A program made the position numbers and the translations under genes. From a virus, in the IMG/VR virus record IMGVR_UViG_3300021093_000054, positions 9,219-73,218 of that record: 64,000 nt of DNA; one strand, 5' to 3'. Each line of letters begins with the position of its first letter. The first letter of the stretch is position 1. Below, piece by piece: positions 9,403-46,323 of this stretch. A model generated the notes under the pieces. It was not told the origin of the DNA and ran no database searches. It saw nothing but the letters and a program-made list of their open reading frames with translations.

Positions 9403-9810
9403 ATGAACCTACAAGAAAACATACAGAGAATTAAACAAATGATGGGACTTCTTAAAGAAGGACTGCACGACACATCTTGGCAAAATGAAGAGGGTGATAA
9501 AATAACTCTTATGGATTTATTAGATGCGACGCAAGACATACCTGTGGAAGAATATTCGGTAGAAGAATTAAAACCACACCTATTGACTTGGGATGGTGAT
9601 GAAGATGAAATTAAAAAAATAGAAAAGTCAGATTTAAAATACCCAATATTAATATTTGTTAATGATGATGGTGAATTTATTAGTATTATTGATGGGCACC
9701 ACAGAGGACAAAAGGCGGTAAGGAAAGGATTAGAGACAATTAAGGCTAAAGTAATACCAATTAATTATTTACCTAAAAAAATAAGAAAAGTTTTTTCACA
9801 TCTAAATTAA
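9403..9810 (+). CDS. ParB/Sulfiredoxin N-terminal-like domain protein with MNLQENIQRIK leader
   Basis: YPILI...IIDGHHRGQKA motif. Confidence 0.7.
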   Translation: MNLQENIQRIKQMMGLLKEGLHDTSWQNEEGDKITLMDLLDATQDIPVEEYSVEELKPHLLTWDGDEDEIKKIEKSDLKYPILIFVNDDGEFISIIDGHHRGQKAVRKGLETIKAKVIPINYLPKKIRKVFSHLN

Positions 9811-37110: not shown

Positions 37111-38013
37111 CTAATTTACCAAACTTTTTTGATAAATATTTTGGAATATGTAAGAAATTACATCAACGGTCCATCCATTACCAATCATTTTTTTTCTTTG
37201 GTTTAAAGTTGCAATTGATGTGTAGTTATCTGGTAGTGTTTGTAATCTTTCGTATTCCAGAATATTAAGTTCCCTTAAATTTCCATCAACAACAACACCA
37301 TAGTTACAGGCCGTGTTTAGTGTATTTGTTTTACCGTGACTTACTCTACCTCTTCTTGTTTTACTCTTCGGAACTTCAAGGTTTACACAATCACCATTAT
37401 TAGCATACAAATATCCTTGTTTTGTTCCATTCCTTATTTTAAAACCTTCGTCGTTTATATCTAACACAACAAGGTGGTCGTTTATTATTTTTTCTGAACC
37501 ATCTGGTTTTAAAATATCTAAAATGTGAATGTTCTTATCTTCCATATTCTTATCAATTGGAATGTTAGTCCAATAAAGTCTTTGTCTTTTTTGAGCCGAA
37601 AAAAATTTACTGTCAATCATTATTGGTTCAACACCAATTGCGTCTGTTATAATTTTTTCCCATTCTTTTTTCATTACAACATTTTCTAAAAGAAAATATG
37701 TTGGTTTTACTTCATTTAATATTCTAACATATTCCCAAAATAAACCACTCTTTCCGTCAAATCCTGTATTGTCACCTGACCTACTAAATGATTGACATGG
37801 TGATCCACCTATAAGTAAATCAATTTTTGGTAATGTTGAGGTATCCAAACCTACAACACTACCTAATTGGATTGTATTTGGGAAATGGTGTTGTGTAAGG
37901 GAAATTGCGTGTTTATCAATTTCTGAAGCAAAATAATTATCAACTTCAATACCAGCTCTTTGTAGTGCTAGTTGTCCGCAGGAAATACCATCAAATAGAC
38001 TCAATATATTCAT
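37111..38013 (-). CDS. DNA (cytosine-5) methyltransferase
   Basis: LFDGISCG, GGSPCQ, LENV, QKRQRLYW, GNGW. Confidence 0.93.
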   Translation of the reverse strand: MNILSLFDGISCGQLALQRAGIEVDNYFASEIDKHAISLTQHHFPNTIQLGSVVGLDTSTLPKIDLLIGGSPCQSFSRSGDNTGFDGKSGLFWEYVRILNEVKPTYFLLENVVMKKEWEKIITDAIGVEPIMIDSKFFSAQKRQRLYWTNIPIDKNMEDKNIHILDILKPDGSEKIINDHLVVLDINDEGFKIRNGTKQGYLYANNGDCVNLEVPKSKTRRGRVSHGKTNTLNTACNYGVVVDGNLRELNILEYERLQTLPDNYTSIATLNQRKKMIGNGWTVDVISYIFQNIYQKSLVN

Positions 38014-38809
38014 ATTTCATATTTTTGAATATATGTTCTATAATACCTACGGTCCAACCATTTCCTAACATTTTATATCTTTGAGTATTGGAAACAACTG
38101 AAGAATAATTATCTGGAACATTTTGTAATCTTTCGTATTCAACTGGTGTTAGCATTCTAATATTACCATTATCCATAACACCACTCATTTGTTGATTACC
38201 AAATCCTTTATAATCTCTAGCAAGTAATGTTGCCGATTTATCACCACCAGGTTTATGTGTCTTTTTTTGGTTTGACACAATTATATGTTGACCACTTAAA
38301 AGTATATCAGACATTTTTACATTTTTATCTTCTGGTTGTTTTATATTTGAAATGTTGGTCCAGTAGAGTCGTTTTCTATTTTGTGCAGAAACAAGATTAC
38401 TATTTATTAAAATTGGTTCAACACCCATATGTTGTGTAATAACATCTTCATATTCTTTTTTCATCACAACATTTTCAAGTAAAAAGTATTTTGGTTTACA
38501 TTCTTCCATTAACCTAACAAATTCAAAGAACAATTTACTTCGTTCGTCTTCGAAATTTAATTGTTTACCAGCAAATGAAAATCCCTGACACGGACTACCA
38601 CCAATAAGTAAATCAATTGGTGGTAGGTCAGTTCCTTTAACTTGTGTAACATCACCAATTTGTATTGTTTCTGGATAGTTATGTTGTGTTACTTGTATTG
38701 CAAACTTATCTATTTCTGATGCAAAGTACTTATCATATTTAATACCAGCTTTGTTTAGTGCAATTTGTCCACAGGACATTCCATCAAATGAAGAAAGTAC
38801 ATTCATCAT
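37991..38809 (-). CDS. DNA (cytosine-5) methyltransferase
   Basis: FDGMSCG, GGSPCQ, LENV, QNRKRLYW, GNGW. Confidence 0.93.
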   Translation of the reverse strand: MMNVLSSFDGMSCGQIALNKAGIKYDKYFASEIDKFAIQVTQHNYPETIQIGDVTQVKGTDLPPIDLLIGGSPCQGFSFAGKQLNFEDERSKLFFEFVRLMEECKPKYFLLENVVMKKEYEDVITQHMGVEPILINSNLVSAQNRKRLYWTNISNIKQPEDKNVKMSDILLSGQHIIVSNQKKTHKPGGDKSATLLARDYKGFGNQQMSGVMDNGNIRMLTPVEYERLQNVPDNYSSVVSNTQRYKMLGNGWTVGIIEHIFKNMKYEYIESI

Positions 38810-39606
38810 AGATAGTCAAATAGTTCAGATGATTCATTACGAAGTCTACGAAGAGCTTTTTCTTTGATTTGTCTAACTCTTTCTTTTGTTAAGTTAAAAT
38901 CTGACCCAATGTCTTCCAAAGTTCTTGGTGTACCAGTAAGGCCAAAATAGTCACCGATGATTGATTTTTCACGGTCGTCCAAAACATTAAGTAATGACAA
39001 CAACTTGTCTTTAAGAATGTCTTTTGTATTAAACCCAGCGTCTGGAGCTACAGCATCTGGATTTTCAATAAGATCAATAAGTGTATCACCTTCTTCGTTG
39101 ATATTCATATCAAGATTAATTATTGAAGGAAGTCGGGCAAACTTATCATCCAGTTTTTTACCGGATTGTTCAACTTCTTTTTTTGCTTTTTGTAAATCCT
39201 GGACAACATTAACTGGGAGTCTGATTGTTCTTGCATTGTCATTTAGGGATTGAATAATTGATTGTTTAACCCACCACACAGCATATGAAATAAATCTTAA
39301 GTCTTTATTCCAATCAAAATTTTTAATTGCTTTCATAAGACCAAGGTTTCCTTCGGCAATAAGATCCGATAAATCAAGACCTTGATTCTGATACTGTTTT
39401 GCAACAGTGATAACAAAACGAAGATTTCCTTCCAATAGTTCGTCTTCTATTTTTTTTCTTTCTCTTTCCGAAATCTCTTCAGATTTCATTTTCAAAGCAA
39501 GCTCCTTCTCACGATCTGGAGTCATAACTTTAATCTTTCTAATGTCTTTTAGGTAGTGATAAATTTCGTCCTGATTAATTGGGGCACCGATGTTCTTTTC
39601 CTTCAT
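38806..39606 (-). CDS. RpoD/RpoS-family sigma-70 factor lacking region 1.1
   Basis: NLRFVITVAKQY, DLIAEGNLGLMKA, FISYAVWW, TIRLP, TKERVRQIKEKALRRLR. Confidence 0.93.
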   Translation of the reverse strand: MKEKNIGAPINQDEIYHYLKDIRKIKVMTPDREKELALKMKSEEISERERKKIEDELLEGNLRFVITVAKQYQNQGLDLSDLIAEGNLGLMKAIKNFDWNKDLRFISYAVWWVKQSIIQSLNDNARTIRLPVNVVQDLQKAKKEVEQSGKKLDDKFARLPSIINLDMNINEEGDTLIDLIENPDAVAPDAGFNTKDILKDKLLSLLNVLDDREKSIIGDYFGLTGTPRTLEDIGSDFNLTKERVRQIKEKALRRLRNESSELFDYL

Positions 39607-40227: not shown

Positions 40228-40526
40228 ATTGTGATTACATTTTATTTGTTGATGGTTCACAATAAACAACCTCTAAACCGAACTAACTAAATAGTTGTGA
40301 TTACCTTCCATTTAAGTATGATTCACAATTTTATTAAATATGGATAGTATATTGTCCGAGTTGTGATTACCTTTCATTTAAGGATGATTCACAATGCGCA
40401 CTGCCGGTTTGTCCGAACGATTTTTGTTGTGATTACCTTTCATTTAAGGATGATTCACAATTTCAATCGTTGGGGATGAATTATACGGCAGTTGTGATTA
40501 CCTTTCATTTAAGGATGATTCACAAT
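40228..40526. CRISPR. CRISPR array, 5 repeats (36 bp) and 4 spacers (30, 30, 30, 29 bp)
   Basis: Consensus (+) GTTGTGATTACCTTTCATTTAAGGATGATTCACAAT at 40360, 40426, 40491 (identical), 40294 (2 mismatches), 40228 (7 mismatches); unique spacers; palindromic ends TTGTGA/TCACAA. Confidence 0.95.
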
Positions 40527-40633
40527 GTGAATTAGGAAACTTTACTATTGAAAGGTTCTTATCATCAACAGAAGTTGTAACCAACTTCCTCCGAATAATT
40601 AAATTGGATGTCACACCACCCAGTTTTTGTTTC
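40527..40633 (-). ncRNA. candidate tracrRNA / omegaRNA-derived scaffold (or array leader)
   Basis: Inverted partial repeat copy at 40547-40569, perfect hairpin GAAGTTG/CAACTTC 40571-40588, second hairpin about 40603-40625. Confidence 0.55.
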
Positions 40634-41812
40634 CTATTTTTTTAAACTGTCAAAGAACTTTTTTGTCCCTAAATCTCTAATGTTTAAGGCAGCATTTAAA
40701 TCTCTATTCAAAATTTCACCACAATTTTCACATTTCCAGATTCTATCTTTTAATTCTAAATTTTTATTAATTGTCCCACAACAATTACATTTTTTACTTG
40801 TTGGTTCAAATCTACCAATTTCAACTAAATATTTTCCACTATTTTTTGTTTTATAACCAATCATAGTTTTAAATTTACCAAAACCAACATCAATTATACT
40901 TCTATTCAATCCAGATTTTTGTTTTACATTTTTACCAGGATTTTCTTTTGTACCTTTACTTGATTTTGTCATCCCTTTAACATTTAAATCTTCCATACAA
41001 ATCAAATCATAATTATCTACTAATTTTTTTGATTCGTTATGTAAAAAATTTTCTCTTGTATTAGCTACATTTTCATGTATTTTTGAAATGTTTTTTTTTA
41101 TTTTTTTATAGTTGTTTGACCCTTTTTTTGCTCTTGCTAATTTTCTTTGTAAGACAGTTAGGTGTTCTTGATTTTTAGTTAAATGTTTTGGATTTTCTAT
41201 TACTTCGTTATCTGATGTGACAACAAATGCTTTTACCCCCAAATCTATACCAACACTTTTTTTAACTTCAACTTTTTTAAAATTATTTGTGTACTCAACC
41301 ATAATTGAGACATAATATTTATTGTGTTTTTTTGAAATTGTTACGGTTTTGATTTTACCTTCAATAGGTCTATGATATTTAATTTTAATTAATTTTTCAA
41401 CCTTTGGTATTTTCAAATAGCCGTCATATGTAATATATAAATTTTTAGAATTTTGCTTTGTACTTGGTCTTGTTGTAAAACTTTGAGTGGTGTCGGATTC
41501 TTTTTTGAATTTTGGGTAACCCCCTTTATTTTTAAAAAAATTTTTATATGCCTTTGATAAGGCCTTCATTTCATTACAATATATGTTTACATCATATTCG
41601 TTTAGAAATGGTGCTTTTACTCTATAATTTTTTATATGATAATTTAATCCAAAATGTGATAAATTTGATTTACCACCCAACTGATAAATTTGTTTTTCAC
41701 AATCTAAAGAAACATTATAAACATATCTTCCGGCTTTGAAAGCCCCTTCAAAATATTCTATTTGTTTCTCTGTTGGGTAAATCCTATATTTATATGCTTT
41801 ATTTTGTTTCAC
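40634..41812 (-). CDS. tnpB: TnpB-family RNA-guided endonuclease (IS200/IS605 OrfB-like), CRISPR-adjacent
   Basis: N-terminal KAYKYRIYPT, RuvC-I GIDLG, RuvC-II CMEDL, Zn finger CNCC...CENC, RuvC-III RDLNAALNI; GTG start. Confidence 0.93.
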   Translation of the reverse strand: MKQNKAYKYRIYPTEKQIEYFEGAFKAGRYVYNVSLDCEKQIYQLGGKSNLSHFGLNYHIKNYRVKAPFLNEYDVNIYCNEMKALSKAYKNFFKNKGGYPKFKKESDTTQSFTTRPSTKQNSKNLYITYDGYLKIPKVEKLIKIKYHRPIEGKIKTVTISKKHNKYYVSIMVEYTNNFKKVEVKKSVGIDLGVKAFVVTSDNEVIENPKHLTKNQEHLTVLQRKLARAKKGSNNYKKIKKNISKIHENVANTRENFLHNESKKLVDNYDLICMEDLNVKGMTKSSKGTKENPGKNVKQKSGLNRSIIDVGFGKFKTMIGYKTKNSGKYLVEIGRFEPTSKKCNCCGTINKNLELKDRIWKCENCGEILNRDLNAALNIRDLGTKKFFDSLKK

Positions 41813-41816
41813 AATA

Positions 41817-41848
41817 CAAATATAGGATTTATTTTTTAATTGGTCAAA
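41817..41848 (-). promoter_or_regulatory. Bacteroidota sigma-A promoter for tnpB
   Basis: TTTG (41848-41845)-N20-TATATTTG (41824-41817), 4 nt before GTG. Confidence 0.75.
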
Positions 41849-44214
41849 AGTTTTGAGATATTATTTTGTTTTGTAATTTTTATCACACAATCTGCCCATT
41901 GTGAGACCATAGGATTGTGAGTTATTACAAACACTTTATCAAAGTATTCCTTAATCTTTACAAAAAATTCAGACACCATCTCCAAGTTGTCATTACTTAT
42001 TTTACCAAATACTTCGTCGAATACAATCAGATTGGGTTTTGGTAGAGAACATACTTTACTCAAAACTGATCTTAAGGCGAGTGATGCAATTGTTTTTTCA
42101 TATCCGGACCCACTAACCATTAACTTTTCAACACCAGTATTATTATCTACCTGGATAAACTCAACCTCGGATTTATCATTAATTCTGATTTCTAATTTGA
42201 AGTAACAAGAATCTTCCATCAACCTTTGTAATTCAGAGTTAATAAGTGGCATCATAGTTTTCATAATAATTTTACTAACACCATTCTTACCATAACTTTC
42301 AAGATACATTTTATAAATCTTATCCTTACTTTCTTCTTCTTTAATTTTTACAATTAAATTTTTGTTATTGGTAATCTTTTCCTTATTTGATTTAATTGTA
42401 TATTCATTTGTGTTAATCTGGTTATTCTTTTCTTTTAAAAGTTTATCATAACTTTCAAGTTTCAAGTCAGCTTTAATTAACATAGAATCAATCTGGTCGT
42501 TTGTTTTAATCTTGTCCTGGACCTCACCCCACCTTTTTAATTTATCTTCAAACCCAGAAATTTTCAAGTCACAACTTTCAACACTCAAATCATATTTTTC
42601 TTTGATAAGTTTGTTTTTCTCATACTCATCAAATTGTCTTTTTGTCTCAACAAATTCTTTTTCTTTGTTGGTTAAATCCGTCATTAACTTCTCAATAACC
42701 TTTTTTTGTTGTGTAAATCCATCAAGTTCAGATATTTTTTGTTGTGTAATTGCTGCGTTCATAAGTTCAATTCCACAGTGTTCACATTTAATACCACCCT
42801 TTACTTCTGACTTTAATTTTTCAATACCAGAAATCTTTGTTTCAAGTTCTATTTTTGAATGGAACTTAGTTTTATACTCATCTTTTACTTTGTCGTGTTT
42901 ATCTTCTTCATAAAATTGTTCTGGTTCAACAACCTTTAGTGTTGAAAGTAGGTCAACATAAGATTGTCTTTCTTTTTTCAAAGTTTCTATTTGTGATTTT
43001 GTTGTTTCTGGATTAAGTAAGGCAATTTCTTTATCGATGTCTGAATGTTTCTTTTTTAACATCGAATCTCTATAATCTTTTCCTTTTGCTATACCATCCT
43101 CAATTTCTTTTACTTCACTTTTAAGAATTTCAATTTGTCCTTCAAGTTCTGTGATTTTACTTTCAAAAGATTCAATATCTTGTTTTAATTCTTCTGAATT
43201 ATAGATATTTGATAATTTTGACTTACTAAATGATGAATAAATTTCTTTTGCAACTTCTTCCTTTTTCTTTAAAAATTCAAGACCCATAAATCTTGAAAGA
43301 ACTTGTCCTCTGGCTGTTGGTTTTGCTTCTAATAATTCTTCTAGGTTTGTTGCCGTTGTAAGAATTGTCATTAAGAAATCTTCCTTGGTCCCAATTGAAC
43401 TTTTAATGAAGGCTTCAGTTTCTCTTCTTTGTTCTCCGGTAAAGTTCTGTAAAGAACCATCGTGTAGTTTTTTAAAGAAATCAAGTTCTGTTTTAACATT
43501 CCATTCACCTTTCTTTGATTTTTTTCTTTCAATTTTTCTTAAAATTATATAATCTTCACCATCAATTGTGATTTCACCTTTAACAACAACCTCATCTTTA
43601 TCAGAAAATCTATTAAAAACTTCTTCAGCTTTTGATGTCTTTGTTGTTTCATTGAAGAACAAGAACATTAGTAAATCCACCGTAAGAACCGTCTTGCCAC
43701 CAAAGTTTGGTGGGTCCGATTCAACAACAACAATTCCATTCAACTTGTCAAAATCAAGTCGTTGGTTTTCGCCATATGATAAGAAGTTGGAGAACTCAAT
43801 GTTTCTTATGTACCACTTTTTAAACTGTGTTGTTTCAGAATCATCTTCTTTCATTTTATTCTCAACCATTTTATTCAAATCAAGAATTTCTGTAAGATGT
43901 TCTCCATACCCTTTGGATTCCAAAAATTTCTTTAACAAATCAAGTTGATAGTTAACGTCAGTTATGTTCATTGATACATCAACTGTTTGCATAGTTTCTG
44001 TGTCAACATTTTTTACTTTTGTAACAACATTAACATTTGTAGTGTTATACTTTTTTTGAAAGTAGTGTTTAACACTCTTCATTTTGTCTTGTGTGAAATT
44101 TTCTTGTAGGTCTTCCCACACCACCTGGATAGATGGGTTTTCAAACTTTGAAAAATCCAAATCTTTTATCATAATATTGTAATTGTATAATTTTGGTGGA
44201 TTAAATAAATCCAT
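41836..44214 (-). CDS. SbcC/Rad50 (gp46-like) ATPase
   Basis: FSNFLSYG, NFGGKT Walker A variant, coiled coil with CEHC hook, SGYEK, FDEVFG, ITH. Confidence 0.88.
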   Translation of the reverse strand: MDLFNPPKLYNYNIMIKDLDFSKFENPSIQVVWEDLQENFTQDKMKSVKHYFQKKYNTTNVNVVTKVKNVDTETMQTVDVSMNITDVNYQLDLLKKFLESKGYGEHLTEILDLNKMVENKMKEDDSETTQFKKWYIRNIEFSNFLSYGENQRLDFDKLNGIVVVESDPPNFGGKTVLTVDLLMFLFFNETTKTSKAEEVFNRFSDKDEVVVKGEITIDGEDYIILRKIERKKSKKGEWNVKTELDFFKKLHDGSLQNFTGEQRRETEAFIKSSIGTKEDFLMTILTTATNLEELLEAKPTARGQVLSRFMGLEFLKKKEEVAKEIYSSFSKSKLSNIYNSEELKQDIESFESKITELEGQIEILKSEVKEIEDGIAKGKDYRDSMLKKKHSDIDKEIALLNPETTKSQIETLKKERQSYVDLLSTLKVVEPEQFYEEDKHDKVKDEYKTKFHSKIELETKISGIEKLKSEVKGGIKCEHCGIELMNAAITQQKISELDGFTQQKKVIEKLMTDLTNKEKEFVETKRQFDEYEKNKLIKEKYDLSVESCDLKISGFEDKLKRWGEVQDKIKTNDQIDSMLIKADLKLESYDKLLKEKNNQINTNEYTIKSNKEKITNNKNLIVKIKEEESKDKIYKMYLESYGKNGVSKIIMKTMMPLINSELQRLMEDSCYFKLEIRINDKSEVEFIQVDNNTGVEKLMVSGSGYEKTIASLALRSVLSKVCSLPKPNLIVFDEVFGKISNDNLEMVSEFFVKIKEYFDKVFVITHNPMVSQWADCVIKITKQNNISKLLTN

Positions 44215-44949: not shown

Positions 44950-45587
44950 AATGTATCATTTAAATTTGAACCTCTCAAGAATACTGCATTTAATTTATTT
45001 TGTCTAGTATTTTGTAGGTCCTGGTTTATTTTTGTTAATTCTTTTATTTTATCATTTTTTTCCGTGAGTTCCTTTCTCAATTTTTGAAGTGTTTCCTGGA
45101 GCATTTTTTCATTGCTGTCGTCTAACTTAATGTCTAAACTTTGTCTAAATTCATCTAATTCTTTATCCTTTTTAGATATTTCATCTTCCAACCTGGCGAT
45201 TTTTTCACCAAGTTCATTTTCATTACTTTTATCATAAACAGTAACTACTTTTTCTACAATTTTTTCAACTGGAACTTCTTTAATTATTTCTTTTTCAACA
45301 ATAACTTCCTTTATAACCTCAATAGGAACTTCAACCCGTTTTTCAATAATAACTTCCTTTATTAATTGTTTTTCATCAATAACATCAGTTTTTAAGTCAT
45401 TTTTACCCTCATTAAGTGTTTCTCCTAATAATCCGTATTTTTTTATATCAAAACCTTGTTTAAAACATTTATATATAAAACCATCAATGTCTTTAATTTT
45501 ATTTTCAGAACAAAATGCCGACACTGTCTGCATTATCTTTTCATTAAAGATTTTTGAGTAATTCGGTTCCATTTTCAATATCGTCAA
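44946..45587 (-). CDS. coiled-coil protein with EVPVEKIVE repeats
   Basis: ORF; start uncertain. Confidence 0.55.
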   Translation of the reverse strand: MTILKMEPNYSKIFNEKIMQTVSAFCSENKIKDIDGFIYKCFKQGFDIKKYGLLGETLNEGKNDLKTDVIDEKQLIKEVIIEKRVEVPIEVIKEVIVEKEIIKEVPVEKIVEKVVTVYDKSNENELGEKIARLEDEISKKDKELDEFRQSLDIKLDDSNEKMLQETLQKLRKELTEKNDKIKELTKINQDLQNTRQNKLNAVFLRGSNLNDTL

Positions 45588-46323
45588 ATGAATTTATTGA
45601 GAATTTTAGAAATGGTCTTGGGTTTTCAAGATCGGTATATGTATATTCCTTGGTTTCGAAATCATAAATTCCGAACCCGTGGTTTCTAATACTTTCACCT
45701 ATGTTCTGTTGAATTGGTGATCCAATCATATATCCTTTACCTGTTTTGAATTTAAATTCCTGTCTTTTATGAATATCACCACATAATACAATATCAAGTC
45801 CGTTGAACTTTTCAACATCATATGCTTCTTCACCAAAGTCAAACCCTAAATCCGTTTTCATGCCTTGGATTGGTCCGTGAAATAAACCAACTTTAATACC
45901 TGTTGCAACATTCAAATCTGGTGGAATATTACCCTGGTATTGTGAATAAACACACCAACTAACATTTTCATCTTCATAAACACCTCTATCTCTATAATAG
46001 ACAATATTTTTGTTATTTAATGAATTAATTATTGGTGTTAAGGTATCCAGCCTATCTAAATTATTTATGAGTGCGTCGTGGTTCCCTGGGATGATAATTG
46101 TTTTTGTGATTTTGGAACATTCGGTCAATACCCAACTTACAATTTCTATTAATTCAGGACTAACAGTGTTTTTTGAATGAACGAGGTCTCCAGTAAATAC
46201 AATTCTATCTGGTTCAATCTCTCTCCATTGATTGAGTGCATCTTCCATAATTGACCTATAAAGGTCGTGGTCTTTAAATAATCTGATATGAAGATCAGAG
46301 AAATGACAAATGGTTTTGATCAT
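45544..46323 (-). CDS. SbcD/Mre11 (gp47-like) nuclease
   Basis: SDLH, TGDL, GNHD, FHG, GDIHK. Confidence 0.88.
   Translation of the reverse strand: MIKTICHFSDLHIRLFKDHDLYRSIMEDALNQWREIEPDRIVFTGDLVHSKNTVSPELIEIVSWVLTECSKITKTIIIPGNHDALINNLDRLDTLTPIINSLNNKNIVYYRDRGVYEDENVSWCVYSQYQGNIPPDLNVATGIKVGLFHGPIQGMKTDLGFDFGEEAYDVEKFNGLDIVLCGDIHKRQEFKFKTGKGYMIGSPIQQNIGESIRNHGFGIYDFETKEYTYTDLENPRPFLKFSINSFDDIENGTELLKNL

Follow-up and report, generated by a model that had tools for sequence, protein, structure and literature searches.

Does the short stretch of DNA between a tnpB-type nuclease gene and a CRISPR-like array in a virus genome specify a guide-RNA scaffold and, if so, on which strand, and with which part of the array would it pair? 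We addressed this question in a window of 64,000 nucleotides from a virus record of 73,218 bases, which has a CheckV completeness of approximately 25% and a G+C content of 29%; DNA of this phage is contained in many lake-water metagenome runs. On the minus strand of the window, the tnpB-type gene (40634–41812; product P0001, 392 aa), the stretch in question (40527–40633; 107 nt) and the array (40228–40526; five 36-nt repeats) follow one another. The original prediction had read the stretch as an omegaRNA scaffold split so as to pair with the half of the repeat lying directly before each spacer, and all of the sequence elements it had listed are present at the coordinates given. This reading is supported by the structural plan of the ISDra2 omegaRNA and by the conservation and covariation seen across three homologous phage loci, and we consider it likely that the minus strand of 40527–40633 is an omegaRNA-derived guide-RNA scaffold, in effect a tracrRNA, for the adjacent TnpB-sized nuclease.

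The protein was analysed by profile and structure-based comparison. P0001 exceeded the cut-offs of the Pfam families OrfB_IS605 (PF01385, 7.9e-28), Cas12f1-like_TNB (PF07282, 2e-20) and HTH_OrfB_IS605 (PF12323, 2.3e-11), and scored 295.9 bits against the NCBIfam model guided_TnpB (NF040570; cut-off 100), this general TnpB cut-off being the only one it passed among the NCBIfam families tried. The score for NCBIfam Cas12f2 was 62.9 bits, below the family cut-off of 450, and the matches of the PADLOC Cas12f and Cas12u4 models (294–298 bits) are taken as probable generic TnpB cross-hits. P0001 is collinear with ISDra2 TnpB (8bf8/8h1j; E 7e-47) over its whole length (residues 3–379). The RuvC triad D190/E274/D371, assigned in P0001 by the motifs GIDLG, MEDL and RDxNAA, and both CxxC pairs are invariant in all 34 aligned relatives and in the four array-linked genes described below. 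With its RuvC triad and zinc-finger cysteines fully conserved, the nuclease looks active, and P0001 is likely the effector of the system. Its homologues include thousands of TnpB proteins; among the matches listed, 45 have 52–94% identity to P0001 and the next group has at most 46%.

The array contains five copies of the 36-nt repeat at a spacing of 66, 66, 66 and 65 nt, all read on the minus strand. Repeat 1 (40491–40526) adjoins the stretch in question, and the remaining array (40228–40490) contains spacers of 29, 30, 30 and 30 nt, repeats 2–4 and a terminal repeat (40228–40263) that is the copy most distant from tnpB and is degenerate (71%).

We then examined the window locus on its own. 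The original prediction had based the pairing on plus-strand 40547–40569 (ATTGAAAGGTTCTTATCATCAAC). When the scaffold is aligned locally with the reverse-complemented repeat, the 8-nt ACCTTTCA scores highest, and 13.6% of 1000 repeat shuffles do as well. RNAduplex gave z-scores of −0.7 on the tnpB strand and −3.5 on the plus strand. The anti-repeat of the window locus taken alone is thus no better than chance, and it is significant in no single locus; the thermodynamics of one locus (RNAduplex or cofold against shuffles) are uninformative. The covariance search that had been proposed as a check returned no Rfam family at the gathering threshold in the window, with chance-level matches only at E ≤10, and the covariation reported below comes from our own alignment of four loci. 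A candidate resemblance of the 5′ half of the repeat to a condensed copy of the stem-1 region was dropped, the same-strand similarity being not above shuffles.

Searches of IMG/VR identified three contigs of the same clade, namely, L005 (= L244 = L252), found by profile scan, and L253 and L254, found with the scaffold motif GGYGGTGTRACRTCCAATTT. Their TnpB genes encode proteins of 380 and 415 aa with 53–58% identity to P0001. The TnpB proteins of L253 (9652–10899) and L254 (1508–2755), both 415 aa, have a 7-aa N-terminal extension and an insertion of approximately 17 aa (YNERIKKNPNLDLKKPTPP) after approximately residue 105 of P0001. In each of the three contigs, the tnpB gene, a homologous scaffold of approximately 100 nt and an array of 36-nt repeats and 30-nt spacers follow one another on one strand, so that the gene–scaffold–array layout is present in all four loci with readable context (the window and relatives of at least 53% identity). 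The flanking genes are unrelated among the four loci. Based on record size and CheckV completeness (8–64% for these records), the implied genome size of the four phages is approximately 290–370 kb. In the window, the upstream neighbour of tnpB on the minus strand is an SbcC/Rad50-like gene (41836–44214), separated from it by 23 nt, and further minus-strand genes around the locus encode a DUF6576 protein, a sigma-70 factor and two C5 methylases. As separate observations, the SbcC/Rad50-like gene is one of an SbcC/SbcD-like pair (with 45544–46323), and the two C5 cytosine DNA methylase genes are adjacent (37111–38809 and 38806–39606, minus strand) and are followed by the phage sigma-70 family factor.

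Wider searches returned few loci of this kind. Single-protein scans with P0001, P0014 and P0008 gave no close locus beyond the L005 contig, and profile scans covering viral, genome and metagenome contigs gave, among the matches listed, only relatives of at most 44% identity besides L005. A relaxed scaffold motif matched 112 stretches, of which only the three already known encode a TnpB relative. An array scan of 254 loci flagged 17, comprising nine from the window and the three contigs, seven other arrays and one low-complexity case (L245); no scaffold motif was found in the eight flagged loci outside the clade. The covariance model R1 gave nothing convincing in 21 more distant TnpB loci (best E 0.64 and 0.75). 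Some distant TnpB loci (at most 40% identity) also have repeat arrays within a few hundred bases, in some cases directly upstream of tnpB: L075/L214 (2688–2932), L211 (30–202), L145 (4142–4341), L090 (3832–6260), L112 (2052–2204) and L019 (704–1010). These may be further independent associations or unrelated host arrays.

The structure was written on the tnpB strand of a four-locus alignment (A3: window, L005, L253 and L254), and the positions given here are those of the window (minus strand). Stem 1 (40605–40622; UGGGUG/CAUCCA with the 6-nt loop GUGUGA) has six base pairs in all four loci, with the consensus UGGGYG/CRUCCA and loop GUGURA. The UGUGA in its loop (40611–40615) is the 5′ strand of a predicted pseudoknot, the 3′ strand of which is UCACA at positions −7 to −3 of the repeat (40493–40497 in repeat 1). 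Stem 2 pairs AUUAUU (40594–40599) with GAUGAU (40561–40566), the latter inside a conserved UGAYRAYAAGA block, with the consensus AUURUU/GAYRAY. Stem 3 (40571–40588; GAAGUUG-GUUA-CAACUUC) is a hairpin of 7 uninterrupted base pairs closed by a 4-nt loop. The anti-repeat ACCUUUCA (40549–40556) is the 5′ strand of stem 4 and can pair with UGAAAGGU of every intact repeat (40500–40507 in repeat 1). Between the anti-repeat and repeat 1 lies a linker or leader of 22 nt (40527–40548), in which the pattern GUUUCC..AA..CAC is conserved in the window, L253 and L254 but absent in L005.

Compensatory changes were detected in each of the four stems and in the pseudoknot. For the four helices other than stem 3, 94% of 100 cells are paired, compared with 37–53% when the partners are slid by 1–3 columns, and double-sided compensatory changes were found in four pairs, one each in stem 1, the pseudoknot, stem 2 and stem 4. 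In a column-shuffle control, one of 500 shuffles equalled the observed covariation; relatedness can inflate this control. The four loci represent about three lineages, so that each helix rests on one compensatory pair. In stem 1, this pair is U-A in three loci and C-G in L005. The pseudoknot is paired in 20 of 20 cells, and a G-C pair is replaced by A-U in L005 (loop UGUAA, repeats UUACA). In stem 2, the four central pairs are kept in all four loci, with one compensatory change (A-U to G-C) and one U.G/U-A change. Stem 4 is paired in 31 of 32 anti-repeat:repeat cells; one of its pairs is compensatory (C-G to U-A), and three wobble changes preserve pairing on the tnpB strand only. Stem 3 occupies the equivalent place in all four loci as a hairpin of three unrelated sequences (−9.7, −8.0, −6.4 and −8.6 kcal/mol on the tnpB strand). 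Without a preset structure, RNAalifold returned stems 1, 2, 3 and 4, with compensatory changes in 7 of 24 pairs. Homologous scaffolds with covarying helices are present in three loci beyond the window.

This structure redraws part of the anti-repeat originally proposed. The ACCTTTCA/TGAAAGGT part is conserved, whereas the GTTG..TGAT/ATCA..CAAC part is paired in 65.6% of cells with zero covariation and was rejected. GATGAT is the 3′ strand of the internal stem 2 rather than a part of the anti-repeat, and UCACA at the repeat end is predicted to form the pseudoknot with the stem-1 loop.

Two further elements of this region were observed. The minus-strand segment ends in TTCAC at 40527, which the original prediction had likened to an IS200/605 right end, and the last 6 nt of the linker form a junction hairpin with repeat 1 (40518–40532; ATTCAC-ATT-GTGAAT). 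The junction hairpin covaries among the loci, being ATACAC-ATT-GTGTAT in L253 (approximately 9530–9545) and ACACA/TGTGT in L254 (approximately 1385–1400), and it can form at the first repeat only; it may serve as a processing site or as a signal for adaptation, or it may be left over from the right-end hairpin of a transposon. The second element is the 9-mer GTTCTTTGA inside the 3′ end of tnpB (40650–40658, minus strand), which is identical in all four loci and is read in a different frame in L005 (..RRSLIEI* as against ..KKFFDSLKK*). Its GUUCUU could pair with AAGAAC, AAGAGC or AAGAAU just 5′ of the anti-repeat, and the 9-mer may represent an extra 5′ helix of the RNA or plain shared ancestry.

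Anti-repeat pairing is symmetric between strands, and the original prediction had left room for a plus-strand RNA acting as a Cas9-like tracrRNA antisense to tnpB. Cofolding of the window locus alone favours this alternative (−38.7 kcal/mol on the plus strand, compared with −32.5 kcal/mol on the minus strand), as does the RNAduplex z-score given above, but the energy advantage of the plus strand is absent in L253, L254 and L005. The conserved G.U pairs of stems 1–4 would become C.A mismatches on the plus strand; repeat 4 of the window (UGGAAGGU) and the L254 repeats (UGAAGGGU) keep their pairing with the anti-repeat through U.G on the tnpB strand only. On the plus strand, stem 3 fails to fold in L253 and L254, reaching only −3.3 and −3.2 kcal/mol, respectively, compared with −8.0 and −6.4 kcal/mol on the tnpB strand. 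In addition, an intrinsic terminator on the tnpB strand directly follows the last, truncated repeat in L253 and L254, and the polarity of the array, with its degenerate repeat distal to tnpB, points in the same direction. The wobble pairs, stem 3, the terminators after two arrays and the array polarity settle the strand ambiguity in favour of the tnpB (minus) strand, and the Cas9-like plus-strand reading is very unlikely, with a minute chance of being correct.

We also considered that the crRNAs might be independent of any tracrRNA. In this case, the self-folded repeats (UUGUGA:UCACAA and CCUU:AAGG) would suffice, and the scaffold would serve the first guide in cis or be a relic omegaRNA. The repeat of the window is partly palindromic and folds on itself at −7.6 kcal/mol, which would compete with trans pairing to the scaffold, and a terminal repeat stem of 5–6 bp is possible in all four loci. 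The L005 locus is relevant in this respect. There, only a short loop separates the anti-repeat from a repeat-like first unit, and the true array comes afterwards; the 110-nt cis RNA folds into the stems described above with its last 9 nt (3′ end) free. The first unit of L005 looks like an unsplit, natural single-guide omegaRNA preceding a true array, and it has the appearance of a complete cis omegaRNA; in the other three loci, the anti-repeat is instead followed by a 22-nt linker and a full repeat. Nevertheless, the covariation of the scaffold strands of stem 4 and the pseudoknot extends to repeats throughout the array and is not confined to unit 1, and all four loci have kept the scaffold intact. 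The C-to-U change that L005 shows at repeat position −6 is matched by a G-to-A change in the scaffold loop and not by the repeat's own 5′ end, where it leaves a U.U in the intra-repeat stem; this compensation favours trans pairing. Taken together, these observations render tracr-independent crRNAs unlikely, and the split scaffold remains the preferred reading.

The arrangement might instead reflect chance or secondary adjacency, in which an ordinary IS200/IS605 tnpB with its own omegaRNA lies beside a phage mini-array used by the CRISPR-Cas system of the host. Orphan mini-arrays are carried by phages, and a search of the four records gave no cas genes. The insertion of tnpB beside a pre-existing array is also compatible with published work (PMC10691335). 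This explanation is set against the recurrence of the gene–scaffold–array unit in four of four loci with different flanks, and against the covariation between scaffold and repeat. Moreover, no match to the Y1 transposase TnpA (PF01797) was detected in any of the four virus records (8–64% complete), neither TnpA nor a transposon left end was found at the window locus, and the 23 nt to the upstream gene leave no room for a left end. The tnpB gene is present in a single copy in the window record and in each of the three relative records, and the features of an IS200/IS605 mobile element (TnpA or ends, several copies) were thus not observed. The 3′ end of the window's repeat presumably resembles the repeats of some Bacteroidota class 2 systems, and no array ending in the same 12 nt was found in 401 sampled Bacteroidota genomes (one phylum). 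We consider that a merely adjacent host array has a slim chance of explaining the locus, and we return to the split scaffold.

The spacers were compared with possible targets. No spacer recurs within an array or in another of the four arrays, and none gave a match to the phages' own records or to any of the related loci compared. Against cultured phages no target was found, the sole matches being eight Enterococcus phage records at E 0.4; in IMG/VR, the core of spacer 2 had no match and the exact repeat of the window had 0 matches. As a side observation, the spacer G+C content drops steadily from the tnpB-proximal to the distal end in three of the four arrays, as in L254 (0.47, 0.47, 0.40, 0.37, 0.33 and 0.20), while the window array (0.40, 0.53, 0.23 and 0.30, against a phage background of 0.29) is not monotonic and shows an overall trend only. 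This gradient suggests polarized acquisition of foreign DNA at the scaffold-proximal end, with decay or AT-drift of the old units. No cas1 (PF01867) was found in the window record or the three relative records (8–64% complete).

With regard to expression, a promoter-like site (TTGACC-17-TATATT; 41819–41847, minus strand) was detected by consensus scan just upstream of the tnpB start. Counterparts (TTGACT-17-TAGATT/TAAATT) occupy the equivalent position in L253 and L254, and this block is conserved in a four-locus alignment (A5); all of these sites are consensus matches. A terminator-like hairpin was not found after the window array (40228–40145), unlike in L253 and L254, and read-through into the downstream gene is possible, as the next gene on the same strand starts approximately 80 nt downstream of the array. 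In metatranscriptome X22, no contig lies on the scaffold or the array; its contigs are approximately 96–97% alike to parts of the tnpB ORF only (40629–40959, 41070–41388 and 41745–41877), come from a relative of approximately 97% identity and may reflect DNA carry-over. No usable transcript evidence for the module was obtained from metatranscriptome X22 or from runs X23, X21 and X19, run X21 giving a low-depth joint of 40396 to 40491.

From this anatomy, we infer the following scheme. The module would be transcribed from the promoter before tnpB, through the scaffold and into the array, and processed into two RNA pieces. The scaffold would fold into stem 1 with its GUGUGA loop, stem 2 and stem 3, and its ACCUUUCA would pair in trans with UGAAAGGU in the 3′ half of the repeat to form stem 4, the repeat:anti-repeat duplex, while the stem-1 loop and UCACA (repeat −7 to −3) would form the pseudoknot beside the guide. 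The two RNA pieces would thereby rebuild the guide–pseudoknot–stem architecture of a TnpB omegaRNA. The 29–30-nt spacer 3′ of the repeat would direct the RuvC nuclease to cleave matching DNA, presumably that of rival phages or plasmids. Repeat 1 could pair in cis as well, and in L005 the first unit, fused to the anti-repeat, would act like a natural single-guide omegaRNA.

If this scheme is correct, the locus offers a compact natural example of the passage from a transposon guide RNA to a tracrRNA and CRISPR array, in which the structural elements of the ancestral omegaRNA can all still be recognized and the fused and split states stand side by side in close relatives. It also provides a testable guide-RNA design for a 392-aa nuclease, consisting of scaffold 40549–40625 and the last approximately 20 nt of the repeat, and it would add evidence for minimal RNA-guided nucleases in large phages, probably directed against competitors. 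A bolder proposal is that these loci form an uncatalogued lineage in transition from TnpB to CRISPR, represented so far only by AT-rich virus contigs with implied genomes of approximately 290–370 kb, with effectors that have kept the ancestral size (380–415 aa) and a full omegaRNA plan in which array repeats supply, in trans, the missing strands of stem 4 and the pseudoknot, and with L005 keeping a fused first guide in cis. We put this forward tentatively and regard it as possible rather than probable; if true, the family would be a living intermediate in which the 3′ end of the omegaRNA was duplicated first and split afterwards. No new category is needed for such systems, as approximately 50 independent TnpB-to-type V events, along with the TranC class, have already been published.

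Finally, we compared the locus with known systems. A solved reference is the ISDra2 omegaRNA, which is described as having a scaffold of 116 nt with stems 1–4 and a pseudoknot that joins bases −5 to −3, immediately 5′ of the guide, to bases −105 to −103 beside stem 1 (PMC10097598). Its stem 2 has four Watson–Crick pairs flanked by non-canonical ones, its stem 4 corresponds to repeat:anti-repeat 2 of Cas12f, and its pseudoknot to repeat:anti-repeat 1 (PMC10097598). The protein is collinear with ISDra2 TnpB, and the predicted phage RNA repeats the plan of stem 1, pseudoknot, stems 2 and 3 and a guide-proximal stem 4. In contrast, ISDra2 is a mobile element that has TnpA, transposon ends and only one fixed guide, while the phage locus is without TnpA or ends, the array repeats supply the 3′ strand of stem 4 as well as that of the pseudoknot, and the RNA sequences have no similarity to each other. 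The structure predicted by comparison, together with the RNAalifold result, agrees with an omegaRNA/Cas12f-type guide architecture. Cas12f (V-F) shares the miniature effector, the array downstream of the gene and a tracrRNA that pairs twice with the repeat, as pseudoknot and stem (PMC10097598); unlike Cas12f, P0001 is without enlarged N-terminal parts, and the Cas12f2 model stays below its cut-off.

The system is most likely a phage-borne TranC- or type V-U-like system with a split omegaRNA/tracrRNA. According to 10.64898/2026.03.27.714800, PMC13565253 and 10.1101/2025.09.28.678669, the TranC class (Jin et al., Cell 2025) is defined by the functional separation of the omegaRNA/reRNA into a tracrRNA and a crRNA; the phage loci share with it an IS605-descended TnpB-like nuclease linked to a CRISPR array and, most likely, a split omegaRNA. 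The solved LaTranC, however, matches P0001 over the C-terminal RuvC only (E 5e-20), far more weakly than ISDra2 TnpB does. As described in 10.64898/2026.03.27.714800, CauTranC9 of TranC clade 9 comes from a Caudoviricetes genome and has five 38-bp repeats, with a clade mean of 414 aa, and a consistent tracrRNA structure is reported for only two TranC clades, 3 and 11 (its Figure 1e–f). The likeness extends to phage carriage, ancestral TnpB size (380–415 aa here), the absence of REC/WED expansion and of nearby cas genes, and approximately five repeats, whereas the repeats are 38 bp there and 36 bp here. The phage family could be TranC clade 9 or a neighbour of it.

The type V-U candidates V-U6 to V-U45 (Altae-Tran et al. 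2023, PMC10691335) resemble the phage loci in being TnpB branches that lack adaptation genes and whose downstream array is conserved, and many of them are known from metagenomes only. The adaptation genes (cas1/cas2) of type V systems were not found here, an absence that does not disqualify membership; the same paper describes many V-U and V-F systems without them. Like type V systems, the phage loci have a predicted anti-repeat tracrRNA between effector and array, suggested by the covariation of stem 4 and the pseudoknot with the repeats. In PMC10691335 and PMC12669027, approximately 50 independent recruitments of TnpB to arrays are inferred, including 40 V-U branches, and the array almost always lies downstream of TnpB, mirroring the position of the omegaRNA. 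The same arrangement is seen here, with a RuvC effector and a conserved adjacent array directly downstream in all four readable loci.
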